A stretch of DNA of 64,000 nucleotides, from the NCBI GenBank assembly GCA_018396535.1, contig JAGTQC010000002.1:1-64000 (forward strand). The letters run 5' to 3'. Below are positions 48,380 to 49,704 of the stretch, one piece after another. Source of the DNA: Candidatus Bathyarchaeota archaeon (GTDB lineage: Archaea > Thermoproteota > CALKCG01 > B24 > DRYS01). Both the position numbers and the translations under genes were made by a program. The notes below the pieces were generated by a model. That model was not told the DNA's origin. It did not search any database and saw nothing but the letters and a program-made list of their open reading frames with translations. Each line of letters begins with the position of its first letter. Within the stretch, counting starts at the first letter, position 1.

Positions 48380-48856
48380 ATGTCTAGAGGCGTCTACACA
48401 CTTATTCTAGCATTATACTCAGGGAAATCTATAAGAGTAGGCAGACTCGGAGTACTAACCTTCGATAAAGGCTTCTACGCTTACACTGGATCCGCTATGG
48501 GTAAAGGAGGATCCAGCTTAGAAAATAGGATTGCTAGATATCTACGTAGAAGTATAGATAAACCATTCTGGCATATAGATTACCTCCTAATGGAGGCTGA
48601 ATCGGAGGCTGTAATCTACGCTGTATGCGAGCAGAGCTTCGAGCATAGGATAGCATCAGAGTTATCTAGAAGAGTAAAACCGATCGACGATTTCGGTTCA
48701 TCAGATTGTAGATATGAGTGTAGAGCTCACCTACACTATCTAGGTTTAGATATATCCCATGCTATGAATACGGTATTATCCATTTATACAAGCTTAAACC
48801 TAGAACCCAGGGTGATATACCCTAACAGAGATATTTTTAAACAGAGGGAGTTATAG
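48380..48856 (+). CDS. DUF123 GIY-YIG family nuclease
   Basis: RGVYTL, GFYAYTGSA, WHIDYL and FGSSDC...AHL motifs. Confidence 0.9.
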   Translation: MSRGVYTLILALYSGKSIRVGRLGVLTFDKGFYAYTGSAMGKGGSSLENRIARYLRRSIDKPFWHIDYLLMEAESEAVIYAVCEQSFEHRIASELSRRVKPIDDFGSSDCRYECRAHLHYLGLDISHAMNTVLSIYTSLNLEPRVIYPNRDIFKQREL

Positions 48857-48881: not shown

Positions 48882-49309
48882 ATGAGTAGACCTTCAGATA
48901 TAGGTTCGATTAAACCAGGTATGTATGTAGTTATAGATGGGGAGCCATGCAGAGTTTTATCTGTAGATAAATCTAAACCCGGAAAAGCCTAGTAGGTGCT
49001 CGAAGCCTCTAGGCTCCGAAACATGGAAGCGCGAAAGCAAGGATAGTAGGCATAGGATTATTCGATAATGTTAAGAGATCTATAGTAGCACCAGTAGATG
49101 CAACTATCGATATACCTATAGTAGATAAGAGAGTTGGGCAGGTAATATCGATCATGGGGGATAGTGTTCAACTCATGGATTCAGAAACATACGAAACATT
49201 CGAATTGAATATACCAGAAGACCTTGAAGGAAGAGATAGATTAGCTCCAGGAGTAGAAGTCGAGTATTGGAGGATTATGGGCAGAAATAAGCTCGTGAGA
49301 GTTAAGTAA
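48882..49309 (+). CDS. eif5a: Translation factor aIF5A, join(48882..48985,49021..49309), 130 aa after removal of a 35-nt intron
   Basis: Not in the ORF track. Exon 1 is [35 protein letters not shown]. Exon 2 is [26 protein letters not shown]...[30 protein letters not shown]...[27 protein letters not shown] at 48869 and a TTTTTAAA TATA-like box at ~48834 lie upstream. Confidence 0.95.
48986..49020 (+). other. Putative BHB-type (tRNA-endonuclease-spliced) mRNA intron in aIF5A
   Basis: Central helix CGGA(48980-83)/UCCG(49015-18), AAA bulges (48984-86, 49019-21) and intron helix GCCUAG(48987-92)/CUAGGC(49009-14). Cuts after the second bulge nucleotide regenerate CCC GGA AAA CAT. Confidence 0.85.
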
Positions 49310-49354: not shown

Positions 49355-49429
49355 GGGCCGGTAGCTCAGCCTGGTCAGAGCGTCCGGCTGATAACCGGAA
49401 GGTCGAGAGTTCGAATCTCTCCCGGCCCA
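49355..49429 (+). tRNA. tRNA-Ile(GAU), no intron, CCA not encoded
   Basis: GGGCCGG/CCGGCCC-A acceptor; TCCGG-CTGATAA-CCGGA anticodon arm; GAGAG-TTCGAAT-CTCTC T arm. Confidence 0.97.
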
Positions 49430-49704
49430 CTCTACCATACTTTTTCCCCGGATACTACCATTGCAATATCATATATTCTTCGAAGCAAGACTTTAACAAC
49501 CTTGTAAATGTATTCATAACCTTTCACATAAAAGTAATTCAACTGGATAGCTAGGATAGTATCGATAATCCCTAAACCTAGGTATCTATAGGAGATTCGA
49601 GATCTCATCGATGACGAAATTTATAGTTGAAGCGGGTAGAAAGAATCTGATGAATAATTTTTAGATCAATAGATTTTTACCACACACTATACTTAACTAA
49701 TGTT

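Follow-up and report, generated by a model that had tools for sequence, protein, structure and literature searches.

The sole aIF5A gene of an uncultured hot-spring archaeon carries a 35-nt insert, at positions 48986-49020 of the window (the whole 64,000-nt stretch of DNA analyzed here), that splits the codon of the hypusine lysine. We regard it as highly probable that this insert is an archaeal bulge-helix-bulge (BHB) intron in the aIF5A pre-mRNA, the splicing of which we infer from DNA, and maturation of the mRNA very probably requires cleavage and ligation by the tRNA-splicing enzymes of the cell. That the gene contains a spliced intron and is not simply broken is argued from the conservation of and covariation within the insert, purifying selection on the exons, the single copy of the gene, and the matching enzymes encoded in the same genome.

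The gene lies in two pieces, located in different reading frames. The open reading frame that starts at 48882 (MSRPSD...SKPGK, then GCC) runs into an in-frame TAG after 36 amino acids, and the second piece (HGSAKAR...LVRVK, 95 amino acids) extends in another frame from 49022 to a stop at 49307-49309. Both pieces had Pfam matches to the expected halves of the protein (Table 1), with E-values of 2.7e-8 for exon 1 and 1.5e-11 for exon 2. Because the exon-2 frame is open just from 49013 and contains no start codon before the ATG at 49154, a normal protein cannot be produced by a simple frameshift or an internal start. Excision of 48986-49020, on the other hand, gives CCC GGA AA/A CAT, that is, KPGK/HGSAK, and a 130-amino-acid protein. 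Specifically, in an alignment to PDB chain 8PUT_E exon 1 reached K36 and exon 2 corresponded to residues 37-131, end to end, and the junction fell at K39/40 in 1BKB and at K40/H41 in 1EIF, so that relative to the solved chains no residue was added or missing at the junction. The predicted spliced mRNA junction reads CCCGGAAAACATGG, and reads from exon-exon joined aIF5A would be marked by CCCGGAAAACATGGAAGC.

Table 1. Features of the interrupted aIF5A gene and its putative intron, in window coordinates.
Feature	Position	Strand	Remarks
TATA-like A/T-rich box, possible expression signal	TTTTTAAA 48834-41	+	read from sequence
GGAGGG, possible expression signal	48869-74, 7 nt 5' of the aIF5A ATG	+	read from sequence
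aIF5A exon 1	48882..48985	+	34 codons + AA of the Lys35 codon; Pfam IF5A-like_N
Central helix H, 5' strand CGGA (exon 1)	48980..48983	+	pairs with 49015-49018; invariant in 4 orthologues
5' bulge AAA	48984..48986	+	predicted cut 48985/48986
Predicted BHB intron, HBh' type, 35 nt	48986..49020	+	fold, motif scan, covariation
Intron hairpin	48987..49014	+	h' GCCUAG (48987-92)/CUAGGC (49009-14)
Intron hairpin, inner part	bulged U 48993; AGGU (48994-97)/GCCU (49005-08); 7-nt loop 48998-49004	+	
In-frame TAG	48990..48992	+	ends unspliced-mRNA translation after 36 residues
Central helix H, 3' strand UCCG (intron)	49015..49018	+	minimum-energy fold, orthologue alignment
3' bulge AAA	49019..49021	+	no adjoining exon helix (relaxed); predicted cut 49020/49021
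aIF5A exon 2	49021..49309	+	third Lys35 base + 95 codons HGSAKAR...VRVK + stop; Pfam eIF-5a

The insert has the geometry of a BHB element, comprising a 4-bp central helix, 3-nt bulges on opposite strands, and a 6-bp intron-side helix. The minimum free energy (MFE) fold of 48966-49040 had an energy of -21.9 kcal/mol (z -2.49), which 4 of 200 shuffled sequences equaled. On the exon side of this fold, UCUA at 48972-75 pairs with UGGA at 49024-27 over a 4x5 internal loop, and, since this helix is set apart from the 3' bulge, the motif is classified as the relaxed HBh' form. The archaeal splicing endonuclease is described as cutting between the second and third bulge residues (Yokobori 2009, PMC2738675), and cuts placed after the second base of each bulge restored the conserved protein uninterrupted. 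Rfam returned no match in the insert. The initial annotation of this DNA, which had proposed the intron's coordinates, helices, bulges, cut positions, and 130-amino-acid product, was thus borne out by the open reading frames, the MFE fold, and the PDB alignment, as was its view of a weak exon-side helix and a relaxed motif, in that the MFE fold places no helix next to the 3' bulge.

When our own BHB scanner was run over the whole genome and the local stretch, 48986-49020 emerged as the excision that restores GKHG. Under a strict motif definition (four Watson-Crick pairs in H and an h' of at least 6 bp), matches occurred in the genome at 4.5e-6 per site-and-length combination, and, as just four equivalent excisions would restore KPGKHG, the probability of a coincidental match is about 2e-5. 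With G-U pairs allowed, counts of the BHB motif in the genome were no higher than in shuffled sequence, and the 744 candidates that join open reading frames genome-wide include many that arise by chance. Because the motif alone is as common in shuffles, what carries the argument is that it falls exactly at the coding junction. A mobile-element origin of the intron was rejected, other matches to it in the genome being at chance level (10-15 nt).

The surroundings of the gene were also inspected. A DUF123 gene (48380-48856) ends 26 nt 5' of the aIF5A start, and the TATA-like box lies within its 3' end. A link between DUF123 and the intron was rejected, given that the DUF123-aIF5A order is also found in the intron-less family f3. 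Downstream, tRNA-Ile(GAU) (49355-49430) starts 46 nt past the aIF5A stop; no T-run lies between the two genes, and TTTTT is present at 49442-46. By this arrangement aIF5A and tRNA-Ile(GAU) may be co-transcribed. The adjacency of the two genes was kept in two congeners and absent from other families, making it a genus-only trait.

We found an insert of 35 or 36 nt at the same spot in two other species of the genus (G001 and G002) and in metagenome contig Ga0272445, and all of the genus inserts, including the 36-nt one, contained in-frame stops. In the resulting four-sequence alignment, 96.9% of the structure cells were paired, compared with 27-52% when the 3' partners were slid by one to three columns. 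Three of the ten intron-hairpin pairs had changed on both sides (C-G/U-A, U-A/A-U, and A-U/G-C), with a covariation score reached by 16 of 500 shuffles in this sample of four related sequences. Compensatory change, albeit in a small sample, was therefore seen in three pairs of the genus, and an A-U to G-C change was seen in the more distant family f56, considered below. Same-site inserts in relatives, with covarying helices, were what the initial annotation had proposed looking for; within the genus these exist, with the central helix invariant.

Contigs assembled from DNA runs of three studies (2017, 2022, and 2023) spanned the insert with no gap, joint, or differences, the 2017 run possibly being the one from which the assembly was built. 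Hot-spring runs X1 and X3-X7 were among those in which this genome is represented. The genome of this organism (G000) measures 1.41 Mb and contains one aIF5A locus at an estimated completeness of 93%, so that a second copy could sit unassembled. Two doubts that had been attached to the initial annotation, an assembly error and a second intact copy of the gene, are countered by these contigs and by the single locus, respectively. Among the four insert-bearing sequences of the genus, dN/dS was 0-0.09 for each exon at dS of 0.13-1.8, and by this measure both exons are under strong purifying selection at the protein level while interrupted. On the RNA side, metatranscriptome run X20 was the sole run to hold part of the surrounding 5-kb stretch (12% of its words); its contigs comprised DUF123 and a 32-nt unrelated piece, and none lay over aIF5A.

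The genes for the proposed splicing pathway were present in the same genome. RtcB was intact, as was deoxyhypusine synthase, for which, to our knowledge, the hypusine-site lysine of aIF5A is the only known substrate. EndA is represented by two paralogues (187 and 189 residues), located at G000:C2:6210-6773 and G000:C1:182214-182783. The best match of the first was 3P1Z_B (E 7e-48), the catalytic subunit of the heterotetrameric Aeropyrum pernix enzyme, to which it aligned gaplessly; it has the Tyr/His/Lys residues together with the crenarchaeal loop region, here GKPRG. The second lacks the His, and its best match was the EndA-like part of 5X89_A. From these features we infer that the two paralogues assemble into a heterotetramer of the alpha2beta2 type. 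The genes that were read hence encode a two-subunit, loop-bearing EndA and an RNA ligase. Two papers report that this EndA type cuts non-canonical motifs (PMC5829648, PMC12397907).

Other genes of this genome appear to be interrupted in a similar manner. The cbf5 gene is split: the family match covers profile positions 5-72 as far as C1:62874 and takes up again with positions 71-321 at C1:62903 (L201, L202). Between the halves, our scan placed a 34-nt BHB candidate that contains an 11-bp hairpin (G000:C1:62867-62900). This cbf5 intron is a separate element, and the insert in aIF5A, which has a different host gene, was thus rejected as an orthologous member of the cbf5 intron family. Additionally, L204 (G000:C8:172213-172247, minus strand), a 35-nt BHB candidate whose hairpin has 12 bp, lies directly 5' of an open frame in which the AdoMet_Synthase match begins at profile position 25 of 395, which suggests that this SAM synthetase gene is split. 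A third candidate, of 21 nt with a GGGGG/CCCCC hairpin (L205, G000:C11:41481-41501), joins frames of 87 and 278 codons, the latter of which matches Radical_SAM. The genome scan for further BHB-split genes that the initial annotation had recommended therefore yielded cbf5 and, for the SAM synthetase and radical-SAM genes, candidates that bear it out in part. Across the whole genome, ARAGORN predicted 37 tRNAs, five of them with introns, one of which was implausible (844 nt, in tRNA-Val); non-canonical tRNA introns were probably missed by this program. Finally, in three related genomes of genus g6 (G007, G010, and G011; L220-L225), RtcB was encoded in a single open frame of approximately 970-1000 residues in which the match to residues 1-53 was separated from the remaining match by approximately 1.3-1.5 kb; judging from this layout, these RtcB proteins look intein-bearing.

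The relatives that we examined are labeled Bathyarchaeota or Bathyarchaeia at NCBI and come from hot springs. Within the class, which comprised 16 genomes in the collection searched, the insert was present in all three genomes of family f1 and, with a length of 30 nt, in both genomes of f4; none was present in the f2 and f3 genomes in which the gene was readable across the junction. When a sample of 400 genomes from the phylum was surveyed together with 151 from another class, same-codon candidate introns came to light in at least three further families (f56, f64, and f17) among the matches listed, a lower bound in that the best 150 were considered. Three f56 genomes have an insert (32 or 35 nt) in which the hBHBh' motif is perfect (CUGG/CCAG plus an 8-11-bp hairpin), and it is here that the additional compensatory change was observed. 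The f64 insert measured 22 nt, and that of f17 (L207, G106:C14) 19 nt, reading GGGU AA/A GCGC ucag GCGC GCCU AG/A, with two G-U pairs in its central helix and the same register as in the window. In nine of the 11 sequences, the cut rule restored GKHG with a full 4-bp helix. For f4, the excision that restores GKHG leaves one of the four central pairs unformed and has an h' of 2 bp, making it a relaxed candidate; an alternative 4-bp register was rejected, as it would add residues to the hypusine loop.

The registers at this codon differ by one base, being AA/A in f1, f4, and f17 and A/AG in f56 and f64, and the intron sequences of f4, f56, f64, and f17 are unrelated. In a single-gene RtcB tree, f4 grouped with the intron-less f2 at moderate support (80-87), a placement under which either intron loss or repeated gain would have occurred and that is compatible with one gain followed by loss as well as with two gains. 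A pattern survey of the 400 genomes mostly gave chance matches, a reversed-pattern control being about half as frequent. Several candidates were discarded: the gene is uninterrupted in G214, the match in G192 is not aIF5A, and the short open frames in G281 and G155 are explained by contig ends. G471 was counted solely in the tally of uninterrupted genes.

Taking the insert as a BHB intron, we propose the following route to the protein. In the pre-mRNA, CGGA of the exon would pair with UCCG of the intron; two AAA bulges would thereby be exposed, and the 6+4-bp hairpin of the intron would stack on one side. EndA, as a two-subunit enzyme of the alpha2beta2 type, would then cut each bulge 3' of its second base. 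Ligation of the exons by RtcB would give AA/A, the Lys35 codon, and deoxyhypusine synthase would modify Lys35 after splicing. Unspliced mRNA would yield a 36-residue peptide and nothing further. As the 3' splice site has no adjoining exon helix, the cut requires EndA of this type to be as relaxed in its specificity as is assumed. Most likely, the intron is a near-neutral passenger that is removed constitutively, one of several mRNA introns in this organism, and not a switch.

Broader readings of the distribution can be contemplated. One, which we hold to be unlikely, is that the hypusine-lysine codon is a recurrent target of BHB introns, with independent insertions in at least three classes that arose by site-selective insertion or by selection for gating, and that several core genes, here including cbf5, together tie translation capacity to the tRNA-splicing enzymes. 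A related reading also accepts the intron as real and treats it as a checkpoint, whereby the supply of aIF5A is tied to EndA/RtcB activity and tRNA maturation is linked to translation capacity. The early termination of the unspliced mRNA, the location of the intron in the one indispensable codon, and the company of a split cbf5 and of BHB candidates abutting the SAM synthetase and radical-SAM genes are all in keeping with such a checkpoint, but the intron is dispensable, as aIF5A is uninterrupted in the close relatives f2 and f3, and its length and sequence drift freely. We accordingly judge the checkpoint improbable, and a coupling of aIF5A supply to EndA/RtcB activity through the intron is speculation.

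The remaining readings dispense with splicing. Ribosomes might bypass the insert, taking off at AAA 48984-86, skipping 35 nt over the hairpin and the UAG, and landing at AAA 49019-21. Bypassing of the phage T4 gene 60 kind requires that the take-off and landing codons match, and the RNA is uncut. The window resembles that system in having a coding gap of tens of nucleotides, matched AAA codons, and, at the start of the gap, a hairpin and a stop two codons on. The pair is AAA/AAA in the window but AAA/AGA in G001, and it is absent from f56 and f64; the BHB cut rule nevertheless gives AA/A in G001 and A/AG in f56 and f64. Bypassing also leaves the conserved 4-bp exon-intron helix and the 3-nt bulges unexplained, and we consider it highly improbable. 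Even less credible is that the locus is a pseudogene in decay or was disrupted by an insertion, its aIF5A function being gone or coming from elsewhere. The reading frame is indeed broken in the DNA and the genome estimate falls short of complete, but both halves are constrained in the insert-bearing species, no second copy was found in the genome, and deoxyhypusine synthase is intact. An artefact of assembly or sequencing, for which nothing speaks beyond the general risk of metagenome-assembled genomes, has a negligible probability in view of the orthologous inserts in other species and of the identical insert in the DNA contigs of three separate studies, each from a different year.

For the cbf5 pre-mRNA of Crenarchaeota, a BHB intron was reportedly described by Watanabe in 2002 and by Yoshinari in 2006. 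Among the papers searched, cbf5 is the one gene family for which such splicing of an archaeal coding region is confirmed (PMC7714728, PMC2738675). Splicing has been confirmed for cbf5, and the introns of other genes were predicted, with their splicing unconfirmed (Yokobori 2009, PMC2738675). The archaeal mRNA cases later given as known were cbf5 and the authors' own example in a Haloferax volcanii 5' UTR (Schwarz 2020, PMC7714728). No paper pairing aIF5A or initiation factor 5A with bulge-helix-bulge was found in a literature search of papers outside subscription journals, in agreement with the initial annotation, which knew of no such description; in the Caldiarchaeum genome paper, the introns mentioned are only those of rRNA and tRNA. 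As far as can be told, this kind of intron is known, and aIF5A would be a new, unpublished host for it.

The spliced-intron reading, if right, would extend tRNA-type mRNA splicing to the core of translation, through the single gene of an essential factor and the codon of its unique modification, and the archaeal class of mRNA introns would be larger than the literature suggests. Genes interrupted in this way in metagenome-assembled genomes are open to mis-annotation by gene callers and pseudogene filters. Moreover, the aIF5A insert offers a short, well-defined substrate for probing an EndA of relaxed specificity, and the occurrence of two registers at one codon in distant lineages provides a test case for the gain, sliding, and loss of BHB introns.

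Several known systems can be set beside the aIF5A intron. In HAC1/XBP1 splicing, the endonuclease IRE1 and a tRNA ligase (RtcB in animals) remove a short mRNA intron. The likeness lies in the pairing of a protein endonuclease with a tRNA ligase and in a frame change that leads to the full-length protein; unlike the aIF5A case, HAC1/XBP1 (mentioned in PMC13149111) is eukaryotic, relies on another endonuclease and other recognition hairpins, and has been demonstrated to act as a switch under stress regulation. The BHB introns of pre-tRNAs and pre-rRNAs share the geometry of a 4-bp helix with a 3-nt bulge at either end, as well as the presumed use of EndA and RtcB, whereas the aIF5A junction must hold a reading frame and the exon strand of its helix consists of Pro-Gly codons rather than an anticodon loop. 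The HVO_1309 BHB is likewise an mRNA substrate of the archaeal splicing endonuclease, there both in vivo and in vitro (Schwarz 2020, PMC7714728), but the Haloferax element is located in a 5' UTR, not in coding sequence, and the host EndA is homodimeric.

The closest parallel is the cbf5 intron. Like the putative aIF5A intron, it measures tens of nucleotides, resides in a coding mRNA, has an unconventional BHB with predicted cuts between the second and third bulge residues, is linked to a hetero-oligomeric EndA, and has a patchy distribution that suggests gain and loss. It also falls within the codon of a functionally critical residue, in that case the catalytic Asp, as the initial annotation had correctly stated (Yokobori 2009, PMC2738675). 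The two differ in their hosts, a pseudouridine synthase versus the translation factor aIF5A, in lineage, Crenarchaeota versus archaea labeled Bathyarchaeia at NCBI, and in the standing of splicing, which is confirmed by cDNA for cbf5 and predicted from DNA for aIF5A.
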